DNA of 26,829 nucleotides from a virus (Duplodnaviria > Caudoviricetes). The stretch lies in the IMG/VR virus record IMGVR_UViG_3300010376_000114, positions 1-26,829 of that record; one strand, written 5' to 3'. Position numbers and translations under genes: made by a program. The notes under the pieces were generated by a model. It did no database searches. It saw only the letters and a program-made list of their open reading frames with translations, and was not told the origin of the DNA. Of the stretch, positions 1,771-26,829 are shown in pieces. The stretch's first letter is position 1. Each line of letters starts with the position of its first letter.

Positions 1771-1955
1771 GGCTCTCCGATTACGTCATCGGCGCGATGA
1801 TTGGACTTGTGATGCTGATGCTGGTATTCACCTTCACCGCCGAAGTCCACTTCGTCCTGAAATACTGGAACTATGAGCCTCCTGGAGCAGGTTCGTCAGA
1901 TACCGCCCGCGCGCGCCGCCCCCTTTCCGCGCGCGAGGTTTCTGGAGTTCCTTAA
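1767..1955 (+). CDS. Small single-TM protein
   Basis: ATGA overlap with upstream gene, RBS GAGGAG, hydrophobic VIGAMIGLVMLMLVFTF; 3' end overlaps TerL by 83 nt. Confidence 0.55.
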   Translation: MRLSDYVIGAMIGLVMLMLVFTFTAEVHFVLKYWNYEPPGAGSSDTARARRPLSAREVSGVP

Positions 1956-3714
1956 GGTCCTGCGCATCCAGACCAAGGACTTCGGCATGGTGTCGATGGC
2001 CGACAACATGCTGGGCACCCAGACCTATGTGCTCGATCAGCTGTGCGAAGGCATCGAGCGTGGGATCACCAAGTTCCTGATCCTCAAGGCCCGCCAGCTG
2101 GGCATGACCACGTTCTTCATCGCGCTCGACCTGTTCTGGGCGATGGAGCACGCTGGTCTGCTCGGCGCCTTCGTCTCCCATACCGATCAGGCCAAGGCGC
2201 TGTTCCGCAACGTCATCAAGGTGTTCTTCTCGCACCTTCCCAAGTCCCACAAGATCAAATGGGATTTGGAAAATCGCGAGATGATCGTGCTCAAGAACGG
2301 GTCGGTGCTGCAATATCTGGTGGCCGGCACCAAGGAGAAGGCCAAGGGCGGGCTGGGGCGATCCTCGGCCAACAACTTTTTACATAAGACCGAGGTGGCG
2401 TTCTGGGGCTCGCCCGATGATCTCAACGAGATCAGCGCCACCATGTCGAAACTCTACCCGCACCGGCTCGATATCGAGGAGACGACCGCCAATGGCTTCA
2501 ACTTCTGGGAGGAGCGCTGGCGCGACGGCAAGGACGATCCCACCATCGCCTGCATCTTCGTCGGCTGGTGGCGTCATGACCATTATACGCTTGCTGATGA
2601 CCACCCGTGGTTCCCCCTCTACATGCCCAAGGGGCACGCGACGCCTCTCACGCGCCTGGAGCGCTCTCGAATGCTGGCGGTGCAGAAGCGCTATGGCGTC
2701 ACCGTCACGCACAACCAGATTGCTTGGTATCGCCACCACCTGGAGTCTGAGGTGGGCGGCGATCAGGCGAAGATGGACGAGCAGTTTCCCTGGCTGGAGG
2801 AGGATGCCTTCGTCGCCACCGGCAGCCAGTTCTTCGTCGCCCAGTTCCTGACCGAGGCGGCCAAGCGGGCGCGCGCGATCCCGTTCATGCCGTTCAAATA
2901 CGAGATGGGCGAGCACTGGTCGCAGACCCAGGTATTCTCGACCCGCGACCAGCGCCGTGCCGAGTTGAAGGTGTGGGAGGAGGCCGATCCCAATGGACGA
3001 TACGTCATCGGATGCGATCCCGCCTATGGAAGCTCTGAAACAGCAGACAGAGCGGTTATCAATGTCTCTCGATGCTTTAGCGACAGACTTGTCCAAGTTG
3101 CGGAGTTTGTTAGCCCAACCGTCTCCACCTATCAATGCGCGTGGGCGCTCTGCCACCTCGCTGGCTACTACCGCAATGTCATGGTTAATCTCGAAATCAA
3201 CGGCCCTGGGGAAGCGGTTTTCAACGAAATAAACGCGCTCCGGCGCGAGACCGCCAACATGTGGGACAAGACCGAGGCGCGCAGCTACGACCTGCGCTAC
3301 GTCTTGACCATGATGCGGCATTTCCTCTATGGCCGCTCCGACTCGATGCAGCAGACGCTCGCCTATCAGTGGCGCACCTCCGGCAACAACAAGCCGCCGA
3401 TGCTCTCCTCCTTCAAGGACGCTTTCGAGCTGCACCGGTATCTCCTCAACTCGATGGCGCTCTTGGAGGAGATGAAAACGATCGTGATCGATGGTGGCTC
3501 GATCCAGGCCGAGACCGGCAAAAAGGACGACCGGGTGATGGCTGCCGCGCTCGCGCATGAGGCGTGGCGGCGCTGGCGCCAGCCCGAGCTGGTCGCTCTT
3601 GGCTTGACCTATGCCGAGGCCTATAAGGAGCGGGCCAACAATGCCTCCGCCCAGGCCGAGCGGATGGCGATCAACTACCTGCACGCCATGAAAATCGGGG
3701 TTCCCGGGCAATGA
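1873..3714 (+). CDS. terL: Terminase large subunit
   Basis: Walker A ILKARQLGMTT, Walker B-like FLHKTEVAFW, coupling motif EETTANG, RNase H-like nuclease motifs IGCDPAYG, LEINGPG and KKDDRVMAAALA. Confidence 0.95.
   Translation: MSLLEQVRQIPPARAAPFPRARFLEFLKVLRIQTKDFGMVSMADNMLGTQTYVLDQLCEGIERGITKFLILKARQLGMTTFFIALDLFWAMEHAGLLGAFVSHTDQAKALFRNVIKVFFSHLPKSHKIKWDLENREMIVLKNGSVLQYLVAGTKEKAKGGLGRSSANNFLHKTEVAFWGSPDDLNEISATMSKLYPHRLDIEETTANGFNFWEERWRDGKDDPTIACIFVGWWRHDHYTLADDHPWFPLYMPKGHATPLTRLERSRMLAVQKRYGVTVTHNQIAWYRHHLESEVGGDQAKMDEQFPWLEEDAFVATGSQFFVAQFLTEAAKRARAIPFMPFKYEMGEHWSQTQVFSTRDQRRAELKVWEEADPNGRYVIGCDPAYGSSETADRAVINVSRCFSDRLVQVAEFVSPTVSTYQCAWALCHLAGYYRNVMVNLEINGPGEAVFNEINALRRETANMWDKTEARSYDLRYVLTMMRHFLYGRSDSMQQTLAYQWRTSGNNKPPMLSSFKDAFELHRYLLNSMALLEEMKTIVIDGGSIQAETGKKDDRVMAAALAHEAWRRWRQPELVALGLTYAEAYKERANNASAQAERMAINYLHAMKIGVPGQ
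2993..3232 (+). CDS. Candidate overprinted gene (+1 frame inside terL), 79 aa, coiled-coil-like
   Basis: AGGAGG at 2978-2983, 9 nt before ATG 2993; terL third-position GC drops over this interval; heptad-like MEALKQQTERLSMSLDALATDLSKLRSLL. Confidence 0.5.
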   Translation: MDDTSSDAIPPMEALKQQTERLSMSLDALATDLSKLRSLLAQPSPPINARGRSATSLATTAMSWLISKSTALGKRFSTK

Positions 3715-4510: not shown

Positions 4511-4992
4511 TCGTCAAGACCTGGGCCTGCCTCAATCGCAACTGCCTCAAGGTCTACGACTCGACCGCAGGCGAGTTCCCGCCCTGCCCGCGCTGCGGCA
4601 TGATCCGGGTGAAGTGGGTGCCGCGGCCGGTGGCGATCAAGAGCGAGCGCACCAAGCAGATCGATGCCACGGTCAAGGAGTTGAAGGAGACCTATGGGTA
4701 TAAAAATTACCGTTCTCCGGTACGCGGTCAAGCTGCCGCCGCCACCACCAATCGCCCAGCTGGATCGCGCGCTCAGCGCTTTGTGCCCAAGGGGTATGAA
4801 GGGTGGGGCGCCGATGTTCCCCTGGACGCGAATGGTAATTTCACCGCCCACTGTGCGCCGACCGGTGTCACGGCCAAGCTCAAGGTCGAGCAGGGACAGC
4901 GAGCTAGTACGACGCGCGTTGGCGATCGAACGATTGGGGTCGGCGGCAACGTCGAATACTCGCACCGGCCGGCTGGAGGCGTCCCCAAGTGA
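4507..4992 (+). CDS. Zn-ribbon protein (FmdB-like N-terminus)
   Basis: RBS GGGAGG, GTG start; WACLNRNC...CPRCG; coupled to the portal by GTGA. Confidence 0.7.
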   Translation: MIVKTWACLNRNCLKVYDSTAGEFPPCPRCGMIRVKWVPRPVAIKSERTKQIDATVKELKETYGYKNYRSPVRGQAAAATTNRPAGSRAQRFVPKGYEGWGADVPLDANGNFTAHCAPTGVTAKLKVEQGQRASTTRVGDRTIGVGGNVEYSHRPAGGVPK

Positions 4993-6716
4993 TCATCCCG
5001 CGCACCAAAAAGTACCGTGACAACACGATCGACGAGATCGCCGAGCTTTGCCTCGGCAGCAAGCGCGACCGTGAGGAGCTATACCTCATGCGTAAGCGCT
5101 ATTTCCACTTCGGCACTGCCGACTATAACATAGAATGCAAGTACAATCGCCTGCAGGCGCATCTCGATCTGGTCTCCTCCTTCCTGTTCGCGCCCGATCA
5201 CTGCCGCTACAACATCGCCGCCCCGCGCAACGCCGCTGATGCGATCATCGAGCAGATCGAGGCGGTGGCGGACGAGTGGAACGACACCTTCCGCGACTCC
5301 GGCCTTGCCGACCTGTTCGCCGACTCGGTGCTGTGGGCGCTGATCCTCGACTCCACCATCATCAAGCTTGGATGGAATGACGCGCGTGAAGAGTTGTTCG
5401 GGAAAATGATATTCCCGTCCGACTTCGCGGTCTATGACGAGACCGAGCCCGATCTCGACTCGCAGGAAGCCTTCGTCCACACCTACTCTCTCAACTGGGA
5501 CAACGCGGTGCAGCGCCTCAAGCGCGCCGGCAAGATCAAGGAGATCAAGCAGCTGGCCCGCTACCCCGGGCAGTACAGCGAGTTTCGCGACCAGATGCCG
5601 CCGGTGCTGGCCAATATGCTGATCTCGCAGACCGGCGGCCCCAATCTCGCGGGCGCCATGGTCGGCCGGGTGAACGTCGATTTCCAGGCCTATGCCACCT
5701 ATCAGTCGGAGTCGAACAATCCGATGGTGCGTTTCCACGAGGTGTGGGTGTGGGATGACGATACCGACGACTACGCGATCTTCACCAAGGCCGACGGGGT
5801 GGATGGGGTCCTTTCCGACAGTCGCGAAACCATCGATGCCATGCGCAAGGCCGACGAGGCGCGCGCTTCCGAGCTTTATCGGGGCTCCTCCAACCTGTTC
5901 GGGATCGAGCAGGAGCACCCGTTCGTCCACGTGTGCCCCTATCGGCTGCATGATTTCTTCTGGGGCAAGGCTCACCTTGACATTTTGATACCGCTGCAGG
6001 TGTGGACCAACGAGCGCCTGCAGCAGATCGCCGACCTACTGGAGCAGAATGTTGATCCGACCAAGATCGGATCGGGCTTCATGGGGCTCACCGATGAGAA
6101 AATGGACGCGCTCGGCGGCGCCGGGAGCTTCGTCTACGACATGATCCCGGGCGCCAAGGTTGAGTTCGAGCGGCCGCCGGTGGTTCCCGACCTGTTTGCC
6201 GAGTTCAAGGAGATCGGTACGATCTTTTTGGAGGCCTCCGGCCTCACCGAGACCATCATGGGGCGCGGCGAACAGGGTATTCGCAGCGAAAAACAGGGCA
6301 AAAGAGCGGTCGCGACCGGCTCGGGACGGCTGCGCAAGGTCGCGGTCGGGCTGGAGGCACCTCTGGTGAAGATCGGCGATGTCGGATTGAAGCTCCTGCA
6401 GCGTAACTCCAAGGAGCGGCTGATCACCGACAGCGGCGCTTTGATGGTCCCAGCCCAGCTGGCGGAGCAGAAAATCAAGATGCGGGTCTCTGGTCACTCG
6501 CATTCTCCGCTGTTTGCCGACGAGGCCAAGGAGATGGCGGCTGGTCTGTTCAAGACCCAGGCGATCGACCGCTTCAGCCTGCTCGACATGACCGATCCGC
6601 CCAACAAGGACGAACTCAAGCACCGTCTGAAAAAGCGCGTAGCGGCGGAAAAGCAGGAGAAGCAGCAGCAGGCCGCGGCGCCAACCAAGCCTTCGCGGCC
6701 GCGCGCCGCTGCCTGA
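4989..6716 (+). CDS. Portal protein
   Basis: 575 aa, between TerL and the head genes. Portal-like segments include YNRLQAHLDLVSSFLF, IIKLGW, HPFVHVCPY..FFWGK and EASGLTETIMGRGEQGIRS. Confidence 0.88.
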   Translation: MIIPRTKKYRDNTIDEIAELCLGSKRDREELYLMRKRYFHFGTADYNIECKYNRLQAHLDLVSSFLFAPDHCRYNIAAPRNAADAIIEQIEAVADEWNDTFRDSGLADLFADSVLWALILDSTIIKLGWNDAREELFGKMIFPSDFAVYDETEPDLDSQEAFVHTYSLNWDNAVQRLKRAGKIKEIKQLARYPGQYSEFRDQMPPVLANMLISQTGGPNLAGAMVGRVNVDFQAYATYQSESNNPMVRFHEVWVWDDDTDDYAIFTKADGVDGVLSDSRETIDAMRKADEARASELYRGSSNLFGIEQEHPFVHVCPYRLHDFFWGKAHLDILIPLQVWTNERLQQIADLLEQNVDPTKIGSGFMGLTDEKMDALGGAGSFVYDMIPGAKVEFERPPVVPDLFAEFKEIGTIFLEASGLTETIMGRGEQGIRSEKQGKRAVATGSGRLRKVAVGLEAPLVKIGDVGLKLLQRNSKERLITDSGALMVPAQLAEQKIKMRVSGHSHSPLFADEAKEMAAGLFKTQAIDRFSLLDMTDPPNKDELKHRLKKRVAAEKQEKQQQAAAPTKPSRPRAAA

Positions 6717-6754
6717 TGTGTCATAATTGCTTCGGAGACGATTTGTAGTAGACT
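6716..6754 (+). promoter_or_regulatory. Promoter copy 1 (ATGTGTCATAAT box; -35 TTGCTT 6727-6732; -10 TAGACT 6749-6754) upstream of the Arg-rich micropeptide
   Basis: AT-rich intergenic segment; sigma70-like TTG...16 nt...TAnnnT; degenerate duplicate of 6894-6933. Confidence 0.6.
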
Positions 6755-6793: not shown

Positions 6794-6832
6794 ATGGCAC
6801 GTCGTCGGCGTCATCGTCGCGGTCGCCGGTAA
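6794..6832 (+). CDS. Protamine-like micropeptide MARRRRHRRGRR (12 aa)
   Basis: A/C-rich leader CCCGCAACAACC, AGGAGG at 6783-6788, 5-nt spacer, then ATG GCA CGT CGT CGG CGT CAT CGT CGC GGT CGC CGG TAA. Promoter upstream, terminator downstream. Confidence 0.8.
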   Translation: MARRRRHRRGRR

Positions 6833-6860: not shown

Positions 6861-6891
6861 GGCCCCCGCCCAGGCGGGGGTTTTCTTTTTT
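6861..6891 (+). terminator. Rho-independent terminator
   Basis: CCCCCGC(6863-6869)-CCAG-GCGGGGG(6874-6880) followed by TTTTCTTTTTT. Confidence 0.92.
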
Positions 6892-6893
6892 CC

Positions 6894-8465: not shown

Positions 8466-9473
8466 ATGCCGCAATTTGGCCAGGGCATCATACCGGCGCA
8501 AGGCGCTATCGCGGCCGAACTGGCGGCGGTCACCCGGCGCGCGTTCCTGCCCAAGGTGTTCGTGCAGCTGTGGAAGTCAACGCCCTGGATGGCGGCGATG
8601 CTTTCGCATGCGCAGGTGGCTTCCGGCGGCTTGTCGCCGATCACCGTGCCGCTGCAGGGCAACCCGATGGTGACGATCCAGAACGTCAGCTATGACGGAT
8701 CGTTCAACCAGCCGGGCACCACGCCGGGCCTGCAGAACGCGGAGTTCAACCTTAAGGGTTACCTGACCGCGATCCCGTTCCTCGGGTTCGAGGGTCTGGT
8801 GCAGCTGGATTACTCGGTGGTGCCGCTGATCGAAGCGCGCATGAACGATGCCACCAACGTGACGCTCGATCGCTTCTCGACCGACATGTACAATAACGTG
8901 TCAAATCTCCAGTCCATGATCGGACTCCCCGCCGCTGTCGATGACGGCACCTTCGCCGCCACATACGGCGGCATCAACCGGCCGAGCAACACCTTCTGGA
9001 AATCCACCTACGTCCACAACGGCGGCCCCACCACCCCCACCCGCAATCTGATGCTCCAGTACATCGCACAGGTGACGAAGGTGACGGGCGAGATACCGAA
9101 GATGGGCCTGATGGGTTTCGGGACCTGGACAAACCTCGCTCAGGATTTTACCCCGAACGAACGTTATGTAGTCACTCCGTCCCAGCCATTCGGTGAAGGC
9201 AAAGTTGAAGCCCTGTTCCGCGCACTCGACGTAGCAGGTGTCCCCTTCTACCCAGACCCGTATTGTCCCGAAGGGACCCTCTATCTGCTCAACACCGACT
9301 ACCTTTCGCTTTACGTCCATGAGCGGGCCTCCTTCTATTTCACCGGGTTCGAGTCAACGCTCGCGAACGGCCAGTTCGGCTATATCGGTGCCCTGCTCAC
9401 GCTCCTGGAGATGGTCGACGTCAAGTGCAAGGCGCACGGCAAGTTCGACAACATTGCGTTCCTGAACATCTAA
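8466..9473 (+). CDS. Major capsid protein (HK97 fold expected)
   Basis: RBS AAGGGAG; 335 aa; follows the scaffold. Segments ELAAVTRRAFLPKVFVQL, IGLPAAVDDGT..TYGGINR..TFWKS and PDPYCPEGTLYLLNTDYL are typical of podovirus capsid proteins. Confidence 0.88.
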   Translation: MPQFGQGIIPAQGAIAAELAAVTRRAFLPKVFVQLWKSTPWMAAMLSHAQVASGGLSPITVPLQGNPMVTIQNVSYDGSFNQPGTTPGLQNAEFNLKGYLTAIPFLGFEGLVQLDYSVVPLIEARMNDATNVTLDRFSTDMYNNVSNLQSMIGLPAAVDDGTFAATYGGINRPSNTFWKSTYVHNGGPTTPTRNLMLQYIAQVTKVTGEIPKMGLMGFGTWTNLAQDFTPNERYVVTPSQPFGEGKVEALFRALDVAGVPFYPDPYCPEGTLYLLNTDYLSLYVHERASFYFTGFESTLANGQFGYIGALLTLLEMVDVKCKAHGKFDNIAFLNI

Positions 9474-14519: not shown

Positions 14520-14521
14520 GC

Positions 14522-16670: not shown

Positions 16671-18070
16671 TGGGTATCGGGATCGGTACTGAGGCACTGA
16701 TCGGCGCGCTGTTCGGCGGTGGCGAGGTAGCGGCCGACCTTGGCATAGCTGGCGCCGATCTCGGACTTGATGCTGCCGCTGCTGGTGCCACCGATCTTGC
16801 CGGCGCCGGAGCGATTGATGCCGCAGGGGCGGGAGCGGAAGCAATTGATGCCGCCGCAGCCGGAGGTGCTGTGGATGCCGCCGGCACGGGCGCTGCGGAG
16901 GCCGGCGCGATCGATACCGGGCTCACTGCTGCCGATGCGGCAGGCGCGGCGGGCGCTGCTGGTGCGGTTGACACACTCGCGCCTCAGAGCGCTACCCAGG
17001 CGCTTAACTTCGCTTCTGCCGCTCCTGGTGCCACCTCCACCGGTGCCACCGGAGCGCTGAACGGCGCCAATCTCGCCAGCATTGGGGAAGGGAGCGCCAA
17101 CGTTGCCTCGCTGCCGAGCTTTCAGTCGGCGTCCACCGAGCTTGCCTCCGGCAACCCGACGCTTGCGGCTGAACTCGGTCAGCTGCCGCCGGCCAATCTC
17201 AATACCGGACCAAGCGCGATCGAGGCGGTGGGCGGTTCTTCCACGCCGCTGGACATCGCCAATCTTGCCGCCGACCCCACGGCTGCGCCCGCGGCCGGGC
17301 AGGTAGCGCCGCAGAGCGCTGCCGACGCGCTCAACGGAGCCGGAGTGGCTCCCGATCGGCCGATCTTCAACAACGGCGTCGAGACCGGCATCCCCGGTGT
17401 CGGCCCGACCGCGCAGCCAGACACCGGCGGTCTTTCCGCCGGGGTGTCTAACTTCCTCAACAGTCCTTATACCAAGGCCGCCGAGCTGGCGCTGCCGGTG
17501 GGCTTCCTCGGCTATAATCTTCTCAAGGGCCCGCCGCCTCTGCCGTCGCAGGCAACTGCGGCGGTAGAGAACGCCAAGGCGAGCATCGGTCCCCTGCAGG
17601 GGCAGGCAACCCAGAATGTCCCGCTGTTCAATCAAACAGCGGCGCAGGACCTGAGCCTCGCCAATAACTTTCAGATCAGCCCGGCGCAGGCAGCCTCGAT
17701 CCAGATTTTTGTGCAGAACGCGCAAAATCAACTGCGCCAGCAGATCGCCAACCAGGGAAACCAGAACGTCGAGGCGACCAGCGAATGGGCCCAGGGCAAC
17801 CAGCAAATCCAGCAGCAGGCGCTGTCCATGCAGGTGCAGATGGTCAACCAGCTGATATCGACCGCGTTCCAGGCGGCCTCCGCCGCCAATGCCGGGGTCT
17901 CGACCGCGGTCAACGCCACCTCATCGCTCGACTCAACCTTGATGCAGGCGGCGCAAATCCAGGTGCAGCAGGACACGGCATTTCAGCAGTCGATCACCGG
18001 GGCACTGCAATCCTTCGGCATGCTCGCGGCTTTGAGTAATCTCAAGGTGACCGGCGCAACCCAGGTCTGA
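16670..18070 (+). CDS. Ala/Gly-rich, Gln-rich putative ejection/pilot protein
   Basis: TGATG coupling; hydrophobic Gly-rich N-terminus, DAAG repeats, Q-rich helical C-terminus; almost no basic residues. Confidence 0.72.
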   Translation: MGIGIGTEALIGALFGGGEVAADLGIAGADLGLDAAAAGATDLAGAGAIDAAGAGAEAIDAAAAGGAVDAAGTGAAEAGAIDTGLTAADAAGAAGAAGAVDTLAPQSATQALNFASAAPGATSTGATGALNGANLASIGEGSANVASLPSFQSASTELASGNPTLAAELGQLPPANLNTGPSAIEAVGGSSTPLDIANLAADPTAAPAAGQVAPQSAADALNGAGVAPDRPIFNNGVETGIPGVGPTAQPDTGGLSAGVSNFLNSPYTKAAELALPVGFLGYNLLKGPPPLPSQATAAVENAKASIGPLQGQATQNVPLFNQTAAQDLSLANNFQISPAQAASIQIFVQNAQNQLRQQIANQGNQNVEATSEWAQGNQQIQQQALSMQVQMVNQLISTAFQAASAANAGVSTAVNATSSLDSTLMQAAQIQVQQDTAFQQSITGALQSFGMLAALSNLKVTGATQV

Positions 18071-18072
18071 TC

Positions 18073-19647
18073 ATGGATTTCCTCCCTCAGACGATCGAAC
18101 GGCTCCTCTTTGGAGACAACCCGCCGCCGCGCCCCCTGTTCGGCGGGACGCCCAACCAGCCGCAACCGCAACCTCAGCCGGTCAGCCTGCAGGAGGCGCT
18201 CGATCGGCCGGAGAGTATCTCGTTCAGCGATATTCCCGGGCTCGCCGCTCCCGGCGGGCCGGGCTCCGGGGATGATGCACCGGAGGCGCCGACCAAAGAC
18301 CAGGAGCGGATCGCCGAGGAGCCCGCCGCCAAAGGCGATCGGCAGCCGGTCACCTCAGCCGCGGCCGGCAAGCCCGACGACGAGGATCGTATCGAGCGGC
18401 AGATCGAGCGCCTGGAGGGCGAAGGAAAAGATATCCTCAAGCGCAAAGGGGCCGCCAGCGAGAAGGCGATTGCCGACCTGCAGGGCGATATCGACAGCAT
18501 GCAGGCGCCGCCGACGCTGGAGAAGATGCCCAACGCACCGCAGAATAATATTGCGCAGGGGGCGATGGAGTGGATGCAGATCGCGACCGTGCTGGGCGCC
18601 CTGGCGGGCGGCCGCGCTCGCGGCAACACCACCGCCGCTCTCAACGCCTTCGGCGGCGCCATCAAGGGCTTCACCCAGGGCAAGAAAGAGGAGTTCAACA
18701 ACAACATAGAGGAGTGGAAGGTAGCGGCTGAGAAGGTCAAGACCGACAATCAGGCCAAGCTCGATCAGTATGATCTCATTTTCAAGAACAAGAAAATGAG
18801 TATGGACCTGAAGCTCGGCATGCTGCAGATCGCCGCCGAGCAGTACAAGGACGAGATCACCTACAACTTGGCAAGCCAGAGGAACTACACCACCCTCGCT
18901 GAGGTAAATCAGAGGGAAAAGCAGTTTCAGGCAACCCATGCGGAACGCCTGATATCGCTCCAGCTTCAGGCGGAAAGGCTGCAGGCCTCGATTAATGGCA
19001 CGCTCTCCGGCCGGTCGCAGGTGCAAGCAGCGCTCAACATGTGGATGCGCGAGTATCGAGCCCAGAACGGCCATGACCCGTCCGCGCAGGAGTATGAGAA
19101 AAAGCTGATAGACCTTACGCGTGAGACTGCAGCCGGCAGGGCGGTCGGCGGTTATCAAGCCCGGGTGTCTACTTTCTCCAACGAGTTCAACCGGATGTAC
19201 CCCACGGCCCTGACGCAGATCGCCGATTACTCGCAGGGAAAAGACAATAAATTTGTCCCTTGGAACCAGCTGCGGCAGATGTCGCAGCGACAGCTTAGCA
19301 ATCCGCAGCTGGCCTCGTTGAAGCGCTCGCTGGACGCGCTGCGAAACTCTTATATCCGCACACTCAATCCTACGGGTCAATCCCGGGTGGCGGATCGTAT
19401 CGAGGCACGCGCTGATGCCGTTCTCGACGCCGCCACCGGCCCGGCGTCGCTGGTTGCGCAGATCAAGATCATGCGGCAGGAGATCACCAATACCGAGAAC
19501 GCCCTCAAGGACTCGGTTGACAGCATCACTGACATGCAGCGCTACGATCCTCTGGAGGCGCAGGAACTTGTTGACGAGGCTTGGCTCAAGGCGCAGTCCG
19601 GAACCAAGGCCTCCCGTGACAAAATCCCATGGGAGGTGATCCGCTGA
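18073..19647 (+). CDS. Helical putative ejection (internal virion) protein
   Basis: RBS AGGT; long coiled-coil regions and a Gly/Ala hydrophobic hairpin IATVLGALAGG...AALNAFGGAIKGF. Confidence 0.72.
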   Translation: MDFLPQTIERLLFGDNPPPRPLFGGTPNQPQPQPQPVSLQEALDRPESISFSDIPGLAAPGGPGSGDDAPEAPTKDQERIAEEPAAKGDRQPVTSAAAGKPDDEDRIERQIERLEGEGKDILKRKGAASEKAIADLQGDIDSMQAPPTLEKMPNAPQNNIAQGAMEWMQIATVLGALAGGRARGNTTAALNAFGGAIKGFTQGKKEEFNNNIEEWKVAAEKVKTDNQAKLDQYDLIFKNKKMSMDLKLGMLQIAAEQYKDEITYNLASQRNYTTLAEVNQREKQFQATHAERLISLQLQAERLQASINGTLSGRSQVQAALNMWMREYRAQNGHDPSAQEYEKKLIDLTRETAAGRAVGGYQARVSTFSNEFNRMYPTALTQIADYSQGKDNKFVPWNQLRQMSQRQLSNPQLASLKRSLDALRNSYIRTLNPTGQSRVADRIEARADAVLDAATGPASLVAQIKIMRQEITNTENALKDSVDSITDMQRYDPLEAQELVDEAWLKAQSGTKASRDKIPWEVIR

Positions 19648-21329
19648 TGGCCGAGTATAAGGTTAGGGCGCCTGACGGTCATATTGTCACGTTGCGGGGT
19701 CCTGACGGCGCCAGCAACGAGGAGATCGTGGCGCAGGCGCAGCGGCTTTATCAACCGGGCGGTGGTGCTGGCGGGGACGAGGAGCCGCGCGGCGTTCTTG
19801 GGACGATCAAGGATTATACGGTCGACGCCCTCAAAGCCGTCCCGCGCAGCCTGGAGCTTGGCGCGGAGCATCTGGGTGGTTTCGCGGGCGATCTCGGCGA
19901 GTCCATGAATGCCGGCTTGGATTATCTCACCGGCGCCATCACCGGTGAGGACAGCACTTATTTCACCGACACCTCGAAAAAGTACGGCGCGCACATCCCG
20001 ACCAGCGAGAGCATCGCCGCGCAACGAGAAAAACTGACCGGAAAATACGACGAGCCCCAATACATGCCGGGTAAGTTTATCCAATCGATCGGCGAGCAGG
20101 TACTTCCCTCGCTGGCGATGGGGCCGGCAAGCCCGGGCGCGCTTGCGCCCACAGGTGTGCGGGCGGCGGCCAAGACTGCGGCGCTGAGAAGTGCGGCGGG
20201 CAAAGCTCAGATCGCCAGCATCGTCGGAGCTGGTGCCGGCGAGGAGGCAGCGGCGGAGGGCGCCGAAGCGCTGGGAGCCGATCCCAATGATCCGACAGCC
20301 CGGATGGTAGGCGGCTTTATGGGCGGCGGCATCGGTGGCGCGCGCGCGGCAAGTAGGATTGAAAAGGCCGCGCGATCGAACGTGAATACCAACCTCAAGG
20401 CCGCCTCGCAGCGAGCCTACGCCAAGCTTGAGAACGCGCCTTTCACGCTCGCCAACTTTGCCTACATGAAGCTGCCGATGCAGATGCAGCTTGCTCTGGG
20501 AAAGCATATACGCACTGTTCTCGACAGCGGTCCCAACTATCTTGGGCCCGAGATCGCAAAAAAAACCTATCAGATACTGGGAAACAGGCTCGACAATGCG
20601 CGACCTATGCGCATGTCGGAGCTACTGGGACTGCATCAGTACCTTGGCAACATCGAATACGTTAAGGGCAAGGGCGGAGACTACGTTGCCGCCCAGATCG
20701 CCCGCGGTGAAATCCGCAACTTCATGCAGGGGATCGGTCTGAGCAAGCCGCTGACACAGGCGCTCGGCAACTGGGCGATGGCGATGAAGGTCCAGGATAT
20801 CGAGAAGGCGCTGGAGGTTGCTCTCCGCCGCGCCGCTGTCAGCGGTACTGGCGCCAACGAGATCAACACAATGCGCCAGGAGATCAGGAAGATCGTGGAC
20901 CACGCGGGGCGCATCAGCGGCTATCCACCCAATGTCAAAGAGCAGATGATCAGGGTCATCGAGGGGACGTATCTGGAGAACGCCGCACGCTGGGTCGGGA
21001 AGATCGCGGCGCCCAGCGGTCTGCACGGCGTGACGGCTGCGGTCATCATCACCCAGCTTGCCCACAGCCCGTTGTTTCTCGGTCTCGCCGGGACAGGCTA
21101 TGCGGCCAAAAAGCTCGGCGACTATCTCACCCATAAGGAAATCACACGCATCGTTCATATGCTGCAGGAGAGCGCCCCGGTGAACAATGGCGTTCGCTCG
21201 ATGAACCTCAACCTGCGCCAGATCGCCGCCGACACCGGCGGGCTGCGTGGTGAGATCGCCGGCACGCTCGGCGGCTATATGAGTTCCCAGTCGGTCATGG
21301 ACAATCCCTCGGGAATACCGCTGCAGTGA
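19647..21329 (+). CDS. Putative ejection / DNA-transfer protein
   Basis: RBS GGGAGGTG, ATG 19647 overlapping TGA. N-terminal YKVRAPDGHIVTLRGPDGASNEEIVAQAQ is a motif I recognise from podovirus internal virion proteins; Gly/Ala-rich helices. Confidence 0.75.
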   Translation: MAEYKVRAPDGHIVTLRGPDGASNEEIVAQAQRLYQPGGGAGGDEEPRGVLGTIKDYTVDALKAVPRSLELGAEHLGGFAGDLGESMNAGLDYLTGAITGEDSTYFTDTSKKYGAHIPTSESIAAQREKLTGKYDEPQYMPGKFIQSIGEQVLPSLAMGPASPGALAPTGVRAAAKTAALRSAAGKAQIASIVGAGAGEEAAAEGAEALGADPNDPTARMVGGFMGGGIGGARAASRIEKAARSNVNTNLKAASQRAYAKLENAPFTLANFAYMKLPMQMQLALGKHIRTVLDSGPNYLGPEIAKKTYQILGNRLDNARPMRMSELLGLHQYLGNIEYVKGKGGDYVAAQIARGEIRNFMQGIGLSKPLTQALGNWAMAMKVQDIEKALEVALRRAAVSGTGANEINTMRQEIRKIVDHAGRISGYPPNVKEQMIRVIEGTYLENAARWVGKIAAPSGLHGVTAAVIITQLAHSPLFLGLAGTGYAAKKLGDYLTHKEITRIVHMLQESAPVNNGVRSMNLNLRQIAADTGGLRGEIAGTLGGYMSSQSVMDNPSGIPLQ

Positions 21330-21532
21330 CTGAGAAAAAGCGCACAACCAAGAGCACGCTGCTCGACACGCTGGAAACGCAGGTGCTGGAGGTTCTCAAA
21401 AACAAGGATATAACCACCGCGGAGCGGCTCAAGGCGATCGAGACCGGGGCAAAAATACTGAGCATCCGCCACAAGCTCGATGGAGAAGGACATGGCGAAG
21501 GAAGCTTCTTCGGCAGCAGCGCCGCCAAATGA
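21326..21532 (+). CDS. Small helical hypothetical protein
   Basis: GTGA overlap with the upstream stop; fills the gap; amphipathic helices. Confidence 0.7.
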   Translation: MTEKKRTTKSTLLDTLETQVLEVLKNKDITTAERLKAIETGAKILSIRHKLDGEGHGEGSFFGSSAAK

Positions 21533-21896
21533 GGCGCTGCCAGCCGGCGTCGAGGTTGAGGAACTCTATGATGGCCCGGTGCCGGGGCAGGTGGTGAGCC
21601 ATCCCGCCCAGCTGGTGCGGCCGATCCCGCAGCAGGTGCCGCCAAAGCAGGCCGACGTGTCATACACGACCCCCAAAAAGGACGAATACCCCGCCGCCGT
21701 GATGGTGGCGCTTGACGTGCTTTCCGCGCGGCTTTTGGGGCTGGTGGCGCTCGTCACCGGGTGTTTCATCTGGGGATTTGTAGTTTGGGACCCCAACCTC
21801 TGGCGCGTGATCGCGGCCAGCGCCTTCTCCGCTTTGGTGTTCCTGCCGATCATGGTAATCTACTGGAAGGCCGGTATGACAGGTGAAGGGAGTTGA
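21492..21896 (+). CDS. Two-TM membrane protein with Pro-rich N-terminus
   Basis: RBS GGAGAAGGA before ATG 21492; hydrophobic LLGLVALVTGCFIWGFVVW and VIAASAFSALVFLPIMVIYW. Confidence 0.75.
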   Translation: MAKEASSAAAPPNEALPAGVEVEELYDGPVPGQVVSHPAQLVRPIPQQVPPKQADVSYTTPKKDEYPAAVMVALDVLSARLLGLVALVTGCFIWGFVVWDPNLWRVIAASAFSALVFLPIMVIYWKAGMTGEGS

Positions 21897-21900
21897 TCAA

Positions 21901-22344
21901 ATGAAAACCTTAGAGCGCTTCCCGGGCCTTGTCGCCCTGGCTCTGGTTGCTGTGATCGTTGGCGGCTTCGCGTTGGCCGTGAAAAACGCCCCGCGCGTCG
22001 ATTTCATCAAATACGCCAACGCCCAGCCGACCATCCTCAGCCCCAACGTCTACTTCTACTCCGCCGTTACCACGGCCCAGCAGCTGATCGGCGCCAACCC
22101 GTCACGTCACGGTTTACAGATTTGCAACTCGGGCGGCACTAACGCGCTCTGGATCATGCCCAACATCGCCACCATCAATACCGGCGCGGTGGTAGCTCCC
22201 GCCGCCAACGTCGGCATCCCGGTGCCAGCCATCGCCTCGAACGTGGCCTCCTGCTTCTCGCCGCCGACCAATGCGCCTTCGGTTGGCCAAGCGTGGCAGG
22301 GCTTCTCCACCACCACACCGGTCACCGTCCTGGAGTATCCATGA
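21901..22344 (+). CDS. Signal-peptide/TM-anchored beta-sandwich protein
   Basis: RBS GGGAG, ATG 21901; hydrophobic LVALALVAVIVGGFALAV; possible ANA-Q cleavage site; domain LIGANPSRHGLQICNSG..LWI. Confidence 0.75.
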   Translation: MKTLERFPGLVALALVAVIVGGFALAVKNAPRVDFIKYANAQPTILSPNVYFYSAVTTAQQLIGANPSRHGLQICNSGGTNALWIMPNIATINTGAVVAPAANVGIPVPAIASNVASCFSPPTNAPSVGQAWQGFSTTTPVTVLEYP

Positions 22345-22382
22345 TGCGCAAGCGCAAGGGTCGGCGGGGGCGCCGCTACTGA
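22341..22382 (+). CDS. Protamine-like micropeptide MMRKRKGRRGRRY (13 aa; 12 aa if started at 22344)
   Basis: GGAG at 22332-22335; start overlaps the upstream stop (ATGATG) and stop overlaps the downstream start (TGATG), exactly filling the gap. Confidence 0.78.
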   Translation: MMRKRKGRRGRRY

Positions 22383-22531
22383 TGCCACTCGCTTCCGGGT
22401 CATCGCCCGCGGTCCGTAGCCGCAACATCCGCGAGATGATCCGCGCCGGCCATCCGCGCCGGCAGGCGGTGGCGGCGGCCTTCCGCAAGGCACGCGAGAG
22501 CAAACGGCGCGGCCGCAGGGGGCGACGATGA
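22382..22531 (+). CDS. Small basic protein (49 aa), MPLxxGSS..NIRE..xGxPxxQAVAxA type, with KRRGRRGRR tail
   Basis: TGATG and ATGA coupling at the two ends; the N-terminal pattern resembles a small basic protein family common in phage structural regions. Confidence 0.85.
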   Translation: MPLASGSSPAVRSRNIREMIRAGHPRRQAVAAAFRKARESKRRGRRGRR

Positions 22532-22938
22532 GCGCAAGGCTGGGGACACCAGGAAGTCAGGTGGTGGCGGCAATCGCTGTTACCGCTAACGGGCGTGTAA
22601 TCACTTTCTCCAAGGCGATCGTGGTGGCCTCGGTGGTGGCGGTGTGGGTCGCCAGCGGCACCGTGGGAAATCGCACCGTGCAGATGCTGGTCAAAGACGC
22701 GGCCGGAAATATCCTGCTGCGCCTGCCGCTGAACGTGGCGATCACCGCTGGCCAGACCGTAAATATTGTCTCGGTCAACGGCGCCTCGATTGCCAATTTT
22801 GCCACTACGCCGCTGATCCAGACCCTGCCGCTGCCGGCTGACATGCCTCTTGGTGATGGCGGATCGGTCACCTTCGTCGATACCGCCAACATCGATCCGA
22901 CCGACACCTGCTCGATCCAGTGCATGGTGAGCAACTGA
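22528..22938 (+). CDS. Beta-rich hypothetical (probable structural) protein
   Basis: ATGA overlap; V/T/I/A-rich strands. Confidence 0.75.
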   Translation: MSARLGTPGSQVVAAIAVTANGRVITFSKAIVVASVVAVWVASGTVGNRTVQMLVKDAAGNILLRLPLNVAITAGQTVNIVSVNGASIANFATTPLIQTLPLPADMPLGDGGSVTFVDTANIDPTDTCSIQCMVSN

Positions 22939-22946
22939 GCTAGCCC

Positions 22947-24269
22947 GTGTCCTGGCCCAATCCTCCATACCCGTTCGGCAACGCCACCTCGCCGGAGGCG
23001 ATGAACCTGCTCGACAAGATGTTCGATCAGGTCGGCGCCATGATCGAGATACCCTGCACCGCCACCGGCACCAACGCGATCTCGCTCACTCCGCAGATTA
23101 ACTGCCCGGCGCTCACCGCCATGAACAACATGGGCGGGTTCCGCTTTGTCGCTACCGCCACCTCGTCGGGAGCGGTGACGGCGCAGTACAACAATCTCGG
23201 GTTCTTCCCGGTCTATCACGCGGATGGCGCCACCCAGGCCAACATCGGCGACATCCTCACCGGGTTCGAATATGTGTTCCGGTTTTTCCAGGCGCTAACC
23301 GGCGGGCTCGGCGGCTTCCTGTTGGAGACGCCGGCCACCCCGGTGGTGACCCAGCCGTGGGGCATGCCGGGCGGGAGATTGACGCTGCAAAGCGCGATCC
23401 CGGTGATGCTCACCAACCAGCCGGCAGCGGTCACCGTCTGGTACGCGCCGTACGTTCATCAGTTCGTGCCGATTTTCAACGGCGCCAACATCCAACCTTA
23501 TCAGTTCACCTCTAGCCTTTTGGATCAGGTAGGGCTTGCGCTCAATCTCGGCAGCAACTGGGCGGCCAACACCAATTTCGACGTGTTCTCAACTCTAGTG
23601 AACGGGGTGGCGGCGCTCTGCACGATACCGTGGGCAAGCAACGTCACCCGCGCTACCGGCCTCGCAATTTTTGGCGGGTTCCTGACTAACGCTGCCCCGG
23701 CGACCGCGCGCCTCACCAACACAACGACCTTCACGCTTGGCACGGGCCTGGGAACTTTTCTTGGCACCTTCCGCACCACCGCCGTGGCCGGGCAAAGCCA
23801 GTTTATCTTTGGCGGTTCCGGCGCCGGCGGAGTTGCCGCCTTCGCCCAGATTGCTAACTACTACAATCAAGTGCTCTATCAGTTTCAGGTCAATGACAAT
23901 GCGGCGGCCTACACCTACACCAGCGCCGTTGCTCGCGCCGCTAATAATAGCACCGGCAACACCATCAACCTGCTCCAGTGCTCGGCCGAGAAAGCAATCC
24001 TGGCGTGGTATAATTTCGGTGTTACGCTCGTTGCCAATGGCGCGCAGGTGTTCCTTGGAATGTCCCTTGACGGTTCAAGTCTGGCAGAAAATTTCTTTCG
24101 CTACGTCAACCCGACCGGTGGCAGCAACTTCAACACCAACACTCCGACAATATCATTTGCGGCAAACGGGCTGCATACCCTCACCGCGAATGAGGCGAGT
24201 GACGGGGTGAATGCCAACGTGTTTAACATCAACTCCTTGAATAACCTCTCCTGCGCCGTCTGGTTGTAG
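22947..24269 (+). CDS. Tail fibre / receptor-binding protein candidate
   Basis: GTG start; N-terminal TATGTNAISLT...FRFVATATSSGAVT anchor-like segment, followed by a PGGRLTLQSAIPV domain seen in phage fibre proteins; T/N/G/A-rich. Confidence 0.7.
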   Translation: MSWPNPPYPFGNATSPEAMNLLDKMFDQVGAMIEIPCTATGTNAISLTPQINCPALTAMNNMGGFRFVATATSSGAVTAQYNNLGFFPVYHADGATQANIGDILTGFEYVFRFFQALTGGLGGFLLETPATPVVTQPWGMPGGRLTLQSAIPVMLTNQPAAVTVWYAPYVHQFVPIFNGANIQPYQFTSSLLDQVGLALNLGSNWAANTNFDVFSTLVNGVAALCTIPWASNVTRATGLAIFGGFLTNAAPATARLTNTTTFTLGTGLGTFLGTFRTTAVAGQSQFIFGGSGAGGVAAFAQIANYYNQVLYQFQVNDNAAAYTYTSAVARAANNSTGNTINLLQCSAEKAILAWYNFGVTLVANGAQVFLGMSLDGSSLAENFFRYVNPTGGSNFNTNTPTISFAANGLHTLTANEASDGVNANVFNINSLNNLSCAVWL

Positions 24270-24272
24270 CTC

Positions 24273-24710
24273 ATGGCAAAGATCAACAATCTACAACTCT
24301 ACCAGCAGACGATTGAGGCGCTGGCACCAATCGATGGAGTGGCGGCCGATGGGAGGATTTATTTCCGACCGGAGGCAACGCCTGCGCAGATCGCCGCCGC
24401 CAATGTCGCGGCCGCGACCTACACCGACGTCGCGCCGCAGATCGTGGCGATCGAGGCGCTGCTGGCGCTGATGACCGACCCGGAATACACCGCGCTCATA
24501 ACCCAGGCGCAGAGCAGGCCGGCGCTGCACCGGATCATCTTTGCGGCGCGCCGGCTCGATCTCGCGCTCCCCGCCGTGCAGACCCTGATCAACAATCTGG
24601 TGACGGCCGGCGTGTTCACGGCCCAGCGGGCGCAGGTGATCTTTGCGCCGCCGCCGGCGCATCCTGACCCGGTGGTGACGCCGGTGCCGGCGCCCACTTC
24701 AGCGCTATGA
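24273..24710 (+). CDS. Tail-fibre-associated (assembly/chaperone-like) protein
   Basis: Follows the fibre; C-terminal LDLALPAVQTLINNLVTAGVFTAQRAQVIF pattern is typical of fibre-adjacent small proteins. Confidence 0.6.
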   Translation: MAKINNLQLYQQTIEALAPIDGVAADGRIYFRPEATPAQIAAANVAAATYTDVAPQIVAIEALLALMTDPEYTALITQAQSRPALHRIIFAARRLDLALPAVQTLINNLVTAGVFTAQRAQVIFAPPPAHPDPVVTPVPAPTSAL

Positions 24711-25004
24711 GTTGAGCCCGGTCGGGCGCCACGGCATTATCGTGCCCTTGTTCTCCGCCCGCTCGGGATGGCGCCCGCAGCCGGCATCCTGCTGCACGAT
24801 CGGGAAATAGGAGTTCACCATCGGCTGCAGCTGTGTTGGCTTGCTCGGATCGACCAGAGGTCCTGGCGCGACCGGCGCCATGCCCATGAACACCGGGGTT
24901 GGCGGCCCCCAGATGCACAGCCCGGCCGGCCCCGGTACCGGCTGGTGAAAATACGCACAGGTCTTGCAGGTGCAGTTGCCGATTGCGTCCTTGGCTGGGT
25001 TCAT
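24705..25004 (-). CDS. Small Cys-rich protein (CxxC..F...G.C...PP...FP.V....CG)
   Basis: ATGA coupling to the Bet stop; CKTCAYF, GLCIWGPP, YFPIVQQDAGCGRH. Confidence 0.8.
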   Translation of the reverse strand: MNPAKDAIGNCTCKTCAYFHQPVPGPAGLCIWGPPTPVFMGMAPVAPGPLVDPSKPTQLQPMVNSYFPIVQQDAGCGRHPERAENKGTIMPWRPTGLNS

Positions 25005-26044
25005 GGGAAGTCCTCTTGGTCGGCTACGGCCTGCGCGGCGATCTCAGCGTCGGCCATCTCCATGCGCTTTTTCAGATCGCTTTCCAGCCCACGGATGATG
25101 GTGCGGCCGTTCTCATCGCTGGAAAAGCGCCGCCAGAAGGTCTGGAAGATCGCCGAGCCGCGATCGGCGGCCTCGCGCGCCTCCGCTTCAAGCGCGGCAA
25201 TCTGAGCGATTGAGCGCTTGCCGGCGGGCTTTGCTGGCGGTTTGGGCTGTGGGCGCTTGAGCGCCTCCGGGATCGGCCCCGGGTCGCCGGGCTCGTCCGG
25301 TGGCGGGCTACGCTCAGTCACGATCTCCACCGGGGGCATCGGCGGCGCGTGCTCGATCACCGGACGCATGACGTCAGGCGCAGCCACCGGCTTGTGCTCG
25401 GCCGCCTCCTCTTCCGGCATCTCCTCCTCACTCAAGAGCCCGGAGAGTTCCTGCGGGAAGGCGCGCCGCAGCGCCAATGCCTCTGCGCACTTGGCAATCA
25501 TCAGCGGCCCCATGCGCAGCCAGCTGCGGGTGAGATCGCCCTTGCTGGACTTCTGCGCATAGGTTTCCCAGTCGGCGACCGACCAGAGCGGCTCCTTGAA
25601 GTCGGAGCGCAGCACGCCAATCTTGGCGGCGATCGGGTGGTCGAACTGCTTCTCCGGCAGCCACAGGTCCTGCCAGCCGGTGTTCTTGCCATACCAGAAC
25701 GGCCCCAGCTGCCCGGCATATTTGCCGGTTCGCTCGGCGATCAACCGGAACCCATCGATCCCGGTCTGGATCGTCATCGCCCGCACGTCCTTCCACTTCC
25801 CGGTGGCCGGATCGCGCACCGACGCCCAGCGGAACACACAGTAGATTTGCTTGGCCAGAGGATCGAGCCCGGTGCGGCGGCAGTGGTATAAAAACAGCGC
25901 AAGCTCGTCGTCACTGGCGCCCGCCGCCACCTGTGACTTGATCAGCAGGACCTGATCGTTTGTGAAGTTGATAACCGACCGCCCGGGGGTCGCTGCTGGG
26001 TTTTGATGCACCACGGGCAAATCGTCGGACAATGGATAAGACAT
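25001..26044 (-). CDS. bet: Phage single-strand annealing recombinase, Bet/RecT family
   Basis: ASDDELALFLYHCRRTGLDPLAKQIY, TIQTGIDGFRLIAERTGKYAG and MIAKCAEALALRRAFPQELSGL..EEM are hallmark Bet motifs; RBS GGAGGGAGAGG before ATG 26044. Confidence 0.93.
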   Translation of the reverse strand: MSYPLSDDLPVVHQNPAATPGRSVINFTNDQVLLIKSQVAAGASDDELALFLYHCRRTGLDPLAKQIYCVFRWASVRDPATGKWKDVRAMTIQTGIDGFRLIAERTGKYAGQLGPFWYGKNTGWQDLWLPEKQFDHPIAAKIGVLRSDFKEPLWSVADWETYAQKSSKGDLTRSWLRMGPLMIAKCAEALALRRAFPQELSGLLSEEEMPEEEAAEHKPVAAPDVMRPVIEHAPPMPPVEIVTERSPPPDEPGDPGPIPEALKRPQPKPPAKPAGKRSIAQIAALEAEAREAADRGSAIFQTFWRRFSSDENGRTIIRGLESDLKKRMEMADAEIAAQAVADQEDFP

Positions 26045-26222
26045 TGTTGAGGCCTCTCCCTCCATGACAGGTTAGCGAATAGATGACGGATCGGTGAACC
26101 CCATCGAGACACACAAAGGAAGCGCATCCATGACCGCTGCCTCGCCGTGTGTGGTGGGCCTTGGGTAGGCCCATGGCGCGCAAGACCAGATCGATCTCGC
26201 GCGCCATGTTGCGGCTGCTCAC
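25911..26222 (-). CDS. HicA-like (dsRBD-fold) small protein candidate
   Basis: GTGA coupling to the upstream stop; pattern helix-G-x-RRGSGH-beta-DG-beta-S.T...RGLNN...VRR; the 3' end overlaps bet by 134 nt. Confidence 0.5.
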   Translation of the reverse strand: MSSRNMAREIDLVLRAMGLPKAHHTRRGSGHGCASFVCLDGVHRSVIYSLTCHGGRGLNNVLSIVRRFARGASKPSSDPRAVGYQLHKRSGPADQVTGGGGRQ

Positions 26223-26701
26223 AGCGGCGAATGCCCGCGCACGTTTTTCAGCACCCGCAGCGGCCGGCGCAGGCCCAGGTTTTCGTGCTTCCTGTCCCTG
26301 TGCACGCGCTTGTTGTCCGCGTAGCGGTGGGCGCGGACACCGACCCGCTGCGACTTGTAGACCCGGTGCAGCATGTACGTGCCGGCCTGGAACCCGCCGC
26401 CGCGATCGAACGAGACAAGCTCGGTCCTGAGCGGGGCGCTGGTCAGATAGCGCGTCCAGGGACCGTTCGCCTTTTTACGAACATAGACGCGGGTCATGTG
26501 GACCCGCACCTCGTGCGCGTGAACGCAACGTCGCACCGCCAGCGCCATGGCGCATGTGTCGGGTTCCTTGCGATCGGCGCGGGTGATGTCGCTATCAATC
26601 ACCGTGATATGGAGCGGGGCCTTGGCGTCGAACACCACGCCTCCCTCAAGGTCGCGCGGGCCGGCATCGGCAGTCAGTTTTGTCAGCTTGATCTTGGTCA
26701 T
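26219..26701 (-). CDS. Hypothetical phage protein with basic C-terminal tail
   Basis: RBS AAAGGA before ATG 26701; globular core (DITRADRKEPDTCAMALAVRR, WTRY, FDRGGGFQAGTYML). Confidence 0.8.
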   Translation of the reverse strand: MTKIKLTKLTADAGPRDLEGGVVFDAKAPLHITVIDSDITRADRKEPDTCAMALAVRRCVHAHEVRVHMTRVYVRKKANGPWTRYLTSAPLRTELVSFDRGGGFQAGTYMLHRVYKSQRVGVRAHRYADNKRVHRDRKHENLGLRRPLRVLKNVRGHSPL

Positions 26702-26715
26702 CGGTAGCTTTCCTT

Positions 26716-26829
26716 TCATTGATCGATCTTGACGGTGTGGGGCAGATGGTTGCGCAGGCCCTTGTTAATCGCGTGGATCAGGCCCATCGCACAGTTACGA
26801 TAGCCCTTGCCGCCGCCGTAGAGGTTGGC
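26716..26829 (-). CDS. C-terminal end of a gene truncated by the window edge (...ANLYGGGKGYRNCAMGLIHAINKGLRNHLPHTVKIDQ)
   Basis: Open frame from 26829 to TGA at 26718-26716, ending at the RBS of the next gene; GC3-rich codons. Confidence 0.65.
   Translation of the reverse strand, partial: ANLYGGGKGYRNCAMGLIHAINKGLRNHLPHTVKIDQ

Follow-up and report, generated by a model that had tools for sequence, protein, structure and literature searches.

Does an open reading frame of only 13 codons, wedged between two genes of a phage late operon, encode a peptide that is under selection, and if so, what might such a peptide do? The window, i.e. the whole stretch of 26,829 nucleotides analysed, is a fragment of a tailed-phage genome with genes for an endolysin, a terminase, a major head protein, a GNAT acetyltransferase and an internal-virion-like protein, and with RecT on the opposite strand; its layout appears podovirus-like. 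The clues to its host conflict, phage-sized contigs being binned in an Acidobacteriaceae MAG (94% capsid identity) on the one hand and in a Pseudolabrys MAG (81%) on the other.

The locus and its junctions

The head genes lie on the + strand and include the terminase large subunit (1873..3714; phrog_2, E 1e-15), the portal protein (4989..6716) and the major capsid protein (8466..9473; phrog_9953, E 6e-26). The portal protein was identified by its 31% identity to portals annotated in MW202825 and MW202753; it matches no PHROG or Pfam family and has no match in any cultured phage. Two further genes lie in this region: a 65-aa protein of the head module (7382-7579) has 60-89% identity in relatives, i.e. 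above that of the portal, and no family match, and a 118-aa protein encoded ahead of a putative scaffold (7584-7940) begins MARRRGKQ, its homologues mostly having a variable basic N-terminal stretch followed by a conserved FYETSSPFE-like core.

The small reading frame, MMRKRKGRRGRRY (22341..22382, + strand; 12 codons if the second ATG, at 22344, is the start), is located in a late part of the + strand operon, where a variable slot separates the 21492 gene from a 440-aa gene at 22947, and comes after putative ejection genes and a two-segment membrane protein. The conserved 5' marker of the slot is a 134-aa protein with two hydrophobic segments (21492..21896, +); it is followed by a 147-aa protein with a hydrophobic N-terminal segment and no family match (21901..22344, +), the micro-ORF, a 49-aa basic protein (22382..22531, +) and, on the 3' side, a 136-aa protein, also with no family match (22528..22938, +). 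A single-protein scan of viral_contigs with the last of these gave no matches, and a 7-sequence alignment contained no stretch conserved enough to serve as a search query.

The codons of the frame are ATG ATG CGC AAG CGC AAG GGT CGG CGG GGG CGC CGC TAC TGA, giving a 1.75 kDa product that consists only of M, R, K, G and Y, with six arginines, two lysines, no acidic residue and a charge of about +7.5 at pH 7. The stop codon of the 147-aa gene (TGA, 22342-22344) overlaps both potential starts (ATGA at 22341, TGATG at 22344), the micro-ORF in turn ends in a TGA (22380-22382) that shares its last base with the start codon of the 49-aa gene (ATG, 22382), and a Shine-Dalgarno (SD)-like GGAG (22332..22335, +) precedes the first ATG by 5 nt and the second by 8 nt. 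The preliminary description was thus accurate as to the 13-codon frame, its overlaps at both ends and the upstream GGAG, and also as to the eight R/K residues in 13 and the RRGRR that is common to this peptide and to a second one, MARRRRHRRGRR, encoded 15,547 nt away at 6794-6832; its term 'protamine-like' is apt for composition and describes composition only.

The GGAG encodes the Leu-Glu of the C-terminal VLEYP of the upstream protein, in which the Glu is invariant (7/7 aligned homologues), and so is not independent evidence for the micro-ORF; further, the CCATGA junction of the window recurs in the relative G007, where it starts an ordinary 81-aa gene. A consensus scan of 8000-26829 gave no promoter- or terminator-like site near 22341, and ARAGORN gave no tRNA genes. 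For 13500-23400 there is no listed RNA holder, a result with no bearing on expression.

Chance expectation for a basic frame

The null event was defined as an open frame with at least eight R/K among the 11 free codons. It occurred in 50, 97 and 166 of 2,000,000 random sequences at 63, 70 and 76% GC, respectively, and in 118 of 500,000 shuffles of the 33 nt of the ORF itself, such that the chance of eight R/K in 11 free codons is 2.5e-5 to 2.4e-4; under the dinucleotide model of the window it occurred in 5 of 300,000. All of these null frequencies are 2.4e-4 or lower. With a looser filter (9-30 aa, R/K at least 50%, SD-like site) the window has two real matches, compared with a mean of 0.12 and a maximum of 2 in 60 block shuffles.

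It is, however, necessary to consider that there may be no gene here, but either a chance Arg-rich frame or a shadow frame of the 49-aa gene, if this is extended at its N terminus. An ORF of 86 aa that would encode such an extension does exist (22271-22531), the GGAG is explained by the upstream protein, and Arg-rich shadow frames are a feature of GC-rich genes: the six frames of the window contain 15 stretches of 11 codons with this many R/K, and 10 of them are in shadow frames of ordinary genes; one of the corresponding ORFs in relatives (L175) also partly overlaps another ORF. Such an origin is nonetheless highly improbable, given the null frequencies, the same length and ending of the ORFs in the same slot of G015 and L175, and the observation that the phrog_2423 match of the 49-aa protein begins at the MPL of 22382, its independently called homologues having 47-52 aa. 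The available evidence is that the 22341 ORF is very probably a real gene under selection.

The slot in related phages

The slot was read in 19 non-redundant relatives, after exclusion of L187 (0/801 bases different from the window), of G018, G019 and L162 (matching G017) and of L189-L192 (matching G037), and also of records without the region and of G011, G013 and G031, in which only the 3' part is present (G013 has a 59-aa basic gene there, G011 and G031 have none). A basic micro-ORF of 13-23 aa is present in three of the 19, two of which end GRRY: MRMRRGSRRGRRY in G015, with AGGAGG; MRKKRGKRKGRRY in L175, which is of 13 aa, or of 22 aa if read from an upstream ATG with GGAG; and MPLIVRRPMRRARRPLRRMVRRR in G037, directly upstream of a homologue of the 49-aa gene. 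Seven others have only a basic gene of 47-61 aa, belonging to phrog_2423 (G007, L188), phrog_16759 (G002, G012, G032) or a third family (G033, G042), and nine have no small basic gene (G008, G017, G021, G022, G025, G039, G041, G043, L174), although G008 is split at contig ends and three of the nine are read only to the end of the locus. With 16 of 19 relatives lacking a micro-ORF in the slot, the 22341 type is patchy and, on this comparison, is an accessory gene.

Across RRGRRY, the window and G015 differ by four synonymous and no non-synonymous changes, yet the G015 copy is uncoupled, with gaps of 13 nt after the upstream stop and of 29 nt before the next start. Because G015 keeps RRGRRY through synonymous changes while uncoupled, it is the peptide that has been kept, and not the coupling; the double coupling, to which the preliminary description had attached meaning, is, as judged from this pair, incidental.

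These observations bear on whether the ORF is a relay, handing ribosomes from the 147-aa to the 49-aa gene, with the peptide itself irrelevant. The two overlaps do exist, there is no GGAG, GAGG or AGGA site belonging to the 49-aa gene itself in the window, and in L134, L154, G007, G033 and L188 the codons for a terminal Arg-Arg are at the same time the GGAG(G) of the next gene, such that RR endings can reflect SD constraints. By contrast, G015 keeps RRGRRY with no SD in those codons, the codons of the window also contain no GGAG there, the 49-aa gene directly follows other genes in G007, L175 and L188, and a relay does not need eight basic residues in 13. A relay as the sole role is therefore very unlikely, though the passing on of ribosomes to the 49-aa gene is probably a side effect of the 22341 ORF in the window.

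In a tree of the upstream membrane protein, in which 13 of 16 inner branches are unresolved, a supported clade (96/98) of eight rows includes the window, G015, G037 and the record of L175; a small basic gene is present in 8/8 rows of this clade compared with 2/11 outside it, and there is no micro-ORF outside it. The preliminary description had proposed that the 22341 and 6794 peptides converged independently on one motif. Since the micro-ORFs of the slot fall in one supported subclade and are part of a wider peptide family, duplication with patchy loss fits better, and paralogy appears more likely than convergence. Synteny, which had been suggested as a check, is weak: the 49-aa gene has homologues at 14 loci, and a basic micro-ORF is directly upstream in one and directly downstream in one. 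A scan for the ..RRGRRY-stop pattern yielded 45 of 50 loci that were out of frame or ended in TGG, and five in frame (G015 again, L121 = L135, L134 and L154). In several relatives, intergenic gaps contain inserted pentamer-like repeats (GGCAA/GGCCA type), as at L105:810-940 (G037), L103 and L038.

Small basic proteins sharing the slot

The 49-aa protein belongs to phrog_2423 (E 1.5e-13, residues 1-44 of a 52-position profile, i.e. a match over the core), is predicted to form a two-helix hairpin and ends KRRGRRGRR; the micropeptide is equivalent only to the tail of such proteins. Homologues occur in cultured phages, and in Acinetobacter phages the family is found under prohead-protease annotations and matches a prohead protease model, as a fusion. 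Pfam has no family for it, sequence comparison gives no relative of solved structure, Foldseek gives no match in the PDB at E<=0.001 and the Atlas has only unnamed clusters or clusters named DUF6496 (11% of members), so that this neighbour reveals no function.

In all, three unrelated small basic families with Arg tails occupy the slot, one of which, phrog_16759, also matches the N terminus of two 'virion structural protein' PHROGs. The phrog_2423 and phrog_16759 proteins resemble the micropeptide in being small basic phage proteins of the same slot with RRGRR-like tails, but differ from it in having a predicted folded two-helix core; in L188, the phrog_2423 protein ends KRKGKRSRRGRRY, which is the micropeptide motif as a fused tail. 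A basic slot protein of 59-61 aa is encoded at L087:9712-9888 (G033) and at L170 ~4467-4652, the resemblance of the 59-aa G033 protein to ChaB being sub-threshold (E 0.081).

The peptide after the portal gene

The second peptide, MARRRRHRRGRR (6794..6832, +; 12 codons), is encoded after CAACAACCAGGAGG, in the interval that separates the portal gene from the following head gene. Thirty-six loci were found via the capsid protein, 34 of which span the portal-to-next-gene interval; these 34 include one that is nearly the phage of the window itself and several near-duplicates, and represent 25 distinct contexts including the window. The peptide is present in 34/34, with ATG or GTG starts in 32 and ATA starts in two (L025:4588 and L028 ~8430). 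In both of the latter the strong SD is intact and the interval contains an insertion; the ATA may reflect down-tuning, inactivation with loss of function or an assembly error. The residues of these peptides are almost only R, H, G, A and K, with two serines in 25 post-portal peptides. Nine loci with an identical peptide have differences at 51% of third positions, a figure that is descriptive and not a dN/dS test, since the loci were chosen on identity. On this distribution the 6794 peptide is the core member of the family and the 22341 peptide an accessory one.

The 6794 ORF is preceded by an A-rich stretch and a GGAG-type site, i.e. a strong ribosome-binding site, and is followed by a hairpin and U-run resembling an intrinsic terminator (6861..6892, +), with such a hairpin being present, by a heuristic definition, in 20 of the 25 distinct contexts. 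CGT, a preferred Arg codon, makes up 65 of 187 Arg codons in the 6794-type peptides vs 17 of 178 in seven long genes. The ribosome-binding site, terminator and CGT use together suggest high expression. The 22341 copy has no terminator, no copy of the repeat motif described below and no CGT codon, so for it high expression is not indicated.

The repeat motif is a 10-mer, TGTGTCATAA (6717..6726, +), with an exact repeat at 6895-6904, such that one copy precedes the 6794 unit and the other follows the terminator. At up to one mismatch there are two matches vs 0.42 expected, and 6 of 100 shuffles reach two; a generic sigma-70 scan gave no site at the repeats. We infer that the two copies might be promoters. 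A short motif, different in each phage, is repeated in this way before the micropeptide unit and after the terminator in the window (6717-6790 and 6895-6940) and in L024, L030, L040, L042 and L044, often with a small GC hairpin ahead of the A-rich ribosome-binding site; these repeated motifs look like paired late promoters.

The terminator also raises the issue of whether the ORFs are regulatory leaders, i.e. arginine-sensing or stalling attenuators that control read-through, as its presence in 20/25 contexts would fit, and as uORF-controlled attenuation is known in alphaproteobacteria (PMC12218461). We consider this scarcely tenable. A run of sensed codons with a terminator/antiterminator pair is not seen; Lys freely replaces Arg; there is no terminator after the 22341, G015 and L175 copies; the folding of RNA from 22310-22410 is no better than that of shuffles (z +1.48), and an Rfam gathering scan of the window gave no matches; arrays of up to six ORFs, as described below, are unsuited to a single switch; and the motif repeat after the terminator suggests a fresh start rather than read-through.

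Selection on charge, and the wider family

The preliminary description had argued that the peptide is under selection and that its arginines are not a chance product of GC-rich codons. This argument gains support from the same-slot ORFs in G015 and L175, from the retention of the 6794 peptide and from relatives of lower GC content. MW202825 (flagged unverified) and MW202753 have 55-56% capsid identity to the window and 49% and 44% GC, respectively, over the stretches read; each has two unannotated post-portal ORFs of 13 aa with GGAG (L280:8277 and 8396 in MW202825; L281:4758 and 4878 in MW202753), all four having 4 R + 4 K. In both GenBank records minus-strand hypothetical proteins are annotated over part of the interval. 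Among the 12-13-codon copies, Arg and Lys interchange at a constant 7-9 basic residues. Since the relatives of lower GC content use Lys for Arg, it is charge that is selected, and not GC-rich codons; the Lys-rich ORFs of MW202825 and MW202753 remove the readings as a GC artefact and as an arginine sensor.

Applied to 517,840 bases (11 relatives and the window), the looser filter gives 16 matches on the late strand vs three on the opposite strand. A pattern scan of viral_contigs gave 78 loci, many from near-identical phages, with 42 short basic ORFs representing 24 distinct peptides. A window-like virion gene is within 3 kb of 37 of the 42, compared with 1 of the 36 other loci; four of the remaining five basic ORFs are by head genes (assigned by PHROGs) of other phage types, L269 being judged by its ORF layout, which is identical to that of L256. 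L241 and L256/L269, phages with portal families other than that of the window, also have a basic ORF of 12 aa in the portal-to-head interval (MARRKKRSRRRR; MARRKSSNRRSR), a hint that the habit of basic micro-ORFs extends beyond this clade. No such ORF is present in the stretches read of Mx9 and Jasmine, two cultured phages that are distant but have a related capsid protein.

In distant relatives, small basic ORFs are arranged in tandem arrays of 3-6; there are 15 loci with such an array, and at 14 of these it is beside the g12301-like tail gene. The ORFs are often chained by TGATG or TAATG and have recurring non-basic cores (MVLVPASR, LKQTRRARRIRAR, GPRSRVDPAG); in these chained arrays the codons for the terminal Arg-Arg often serve also as the SD of the following ORF, which places a second constraint on them that is absent in the window and G015. 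The array loci are L134/L224, L154/L253, L197, L211, L218 (G036), L234, L235, L240, L255, L257, L265-L268 and L270, with ORFs of 13-63 aa after the tail gene and with further sub-families of the types MARRRR.. and ..AARRNLRKAR... A 25-aa array peptide gave no match in the 'phages' set with the low-complexity filter on.

Possible roles of the peptides

Non-specific binding of DNA by oligo-Arg/Lys would be expected from the physics of polycations. We propose, with a probability of roughly one in two, that the peptides of 10-17 residues are late, non-specific nucleic-acid-binding polycations, which likely neutralise DNA in the head as a polyamine substitute. The 22341 peptide would be translated by coupling to the upstream gene and the G015 copy from its own ribosome-binding site; a high copy number would apply to the 6794 peptide, from its ribosome-binding site, terminator and CGT use, and not to the 22341 peptide. 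For both, charge alone would account for binding to nucleic acid, and both would enter the head together with the DNA, there replacing or supplementing polyamines, with the benefit of lower electrostatic repulsion or a more stable particle. To neutralise 10% of a 43-kb genome would, by calculation, take about 1,100 copies of a +8 peptide. The basis of the proposal in the sequences is the ORFs, the conservation of their amino acids, the constant charge and the position among head and tail genes; that the basic families sharing the slot match or are fused to virion proteins also supports a virion role. A GNAT acetyltransferase is encoded among the virion genes (14447-14977) and found in only part of the relatives; that it modifies the basic peptides or ejection proteins is speculation.

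There are precedents and also objections. Small basic proteins or polyamines are described as neutralising or condensing viral genomes (PMC6163548). Against the proposal, motor-packaging phages are regarded as packing DNA that is essentially naked and are said generally to lack basic capsid segments, the charge being described as balanced by Mg2+/counter-ions and polyamines (PMC7096446), and the adenovirus protein VII is reported to be dispensable for packaging (PMC5491326). The micropeptide, on inspection, has no visible capsid-targeting sequence. Strongly condensing polycations can reportedly stall the phi29 packaging motor, which also counts against a packaged role.

The late peptides might instead act in the cytoplasm and not be packaged, coating or condensing host or phage nucleic acid, or binding an acidic protein, e.g. 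the scaffold; host shut-off, compaction of concatemers, or shielding from nucleases or DNA-sensing defences would be possible roles. All of the evidence for selection on charge fits this equally, as does the lack of a targeting signal; the conserved non-basic cores of the array members suggest specific partners, and an RNA binder is known among the small Arg-rich proteins of the DUF1127 type that occur in alpha- and gammaproteobacteria (PMC12218461). By contrast, the ORFs are almost always positioned among head and tail genes, not early or host-takeover genes, and the neighbouring basic families have their links to virion proteins. A cytoplasmic role is thus doubtful, though of all the alternatives it deserves the most weight.

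Membrane-active cationic helpers, acting in lysis or in DNA entry together with ejected internal proteins, would suit a slot that follows putative ejection genes and a two-segment membrane protein, and the cationic phage peptide gp28 of phiKT is reportedly needed for outer-membrane disruption. However, peptides of 12-13 aa without V, I, L, F or W would form no amphipathic helix, the endolysin is encoded away from the slot (18-710) and the core copy is in the head module, making such a role very unlikely.

Returning to polycations that neutralise DNA in the head, a broader and more tentative proposal, possible rather than probable, is that this is a whole lineage of motor-packaged tailed phages with 'protamines' of their own. 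These would be free-standing, one to several per genome and too short for gene callers; they would be produced in large amounts late in infection and would take the place of host polyamines in the head, in thousands of copies. The gain, chaining or loss of ORFs such as that at 22341 would then adjust the dosage. If so, there would be a genetically encoded route to charge balance, beside metal ions and host polyamines. It would also mean that annotation overlooks some of the shortest conserved genes of phages, of 10-17 codons, there being no calls for them in either GenBank relative. On its own the 22341 copy would be an accessory paralogue; it is of value because it brings the family to light and demonstrates turnover of dosage or of the slot.

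Comparison with known systems

The search of the literature, which covered neither supplements nor subscription journals and so does not establish absence from print, yielded no report of tailed-phage micropeptides that are basic and free-standing; in the available part of a review of phage small proteins (PMC11323111), the words 'arginine', 'basic' and 'capsid' do not occur.

A precedent for a packaged role in a tailed phage is provided by the internal proteins of T4 (IPI, IPII and IPIII), which are packaged with the DNA at ~1000 molecules, their lysines contacting DNA phosphates (PMC3012670). They differ in being larger (mature IPI* is a folded nuclease inhibitor of 76 residues) and in having a capsid-targeting sequence and proteolytic maturation; inspection of the 12-13-aa product reveals neither an N-terminal capsid-targeting sequence nor a folded body.

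The J/VP8 proteins of the Microviridae, including J of phiX174, are small basic phage proteins that lie inside the capsid and act in DNA packaging (PMC11945456, PMC7096446). The likeness is one of description, and J belongs to ssDNA T=1 phages, in which it is present in 60 copies with icosahedral order. By contrast, the phage of the window has dsDNA and is terminase-packaged, its peptides have 10-17 aa and no hydrophobic anchor, and in place of the microvirus setting (ssDNA, T=1, beside F/VP1) the window has a terminase, a portal and a tailed-phage head protein.

Baculovirus P6.9 and adenovirus X/mu are similar to the phage peptides in their very high Arg/Lys content, their late genes among structural genes and their proposed role in charge neutralisation (PMC6163548, PMC5491326). 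The micropeptide shares with them small size, richness in Arg/Lys (8/13) and lack of acidic residues. Both are, however, from eukaryotic viruses; P6.9 (6.9 kDa) is Ser-rich and switched by phosphorylation, and mu is cut from the precursor pre-X by a viral protease (PMC5491326). The phage peptides, by contrast, are free-standing ORFs with almost no Ser, in one to several copies per genome, and with no Ser or Thr in either the 22341 or the 6794 peptide there is neither a phosphorylation switch nor release from a precursor. By composition and position, the micropeptide would work like P6.9, mu and J, while belonging to none of them.
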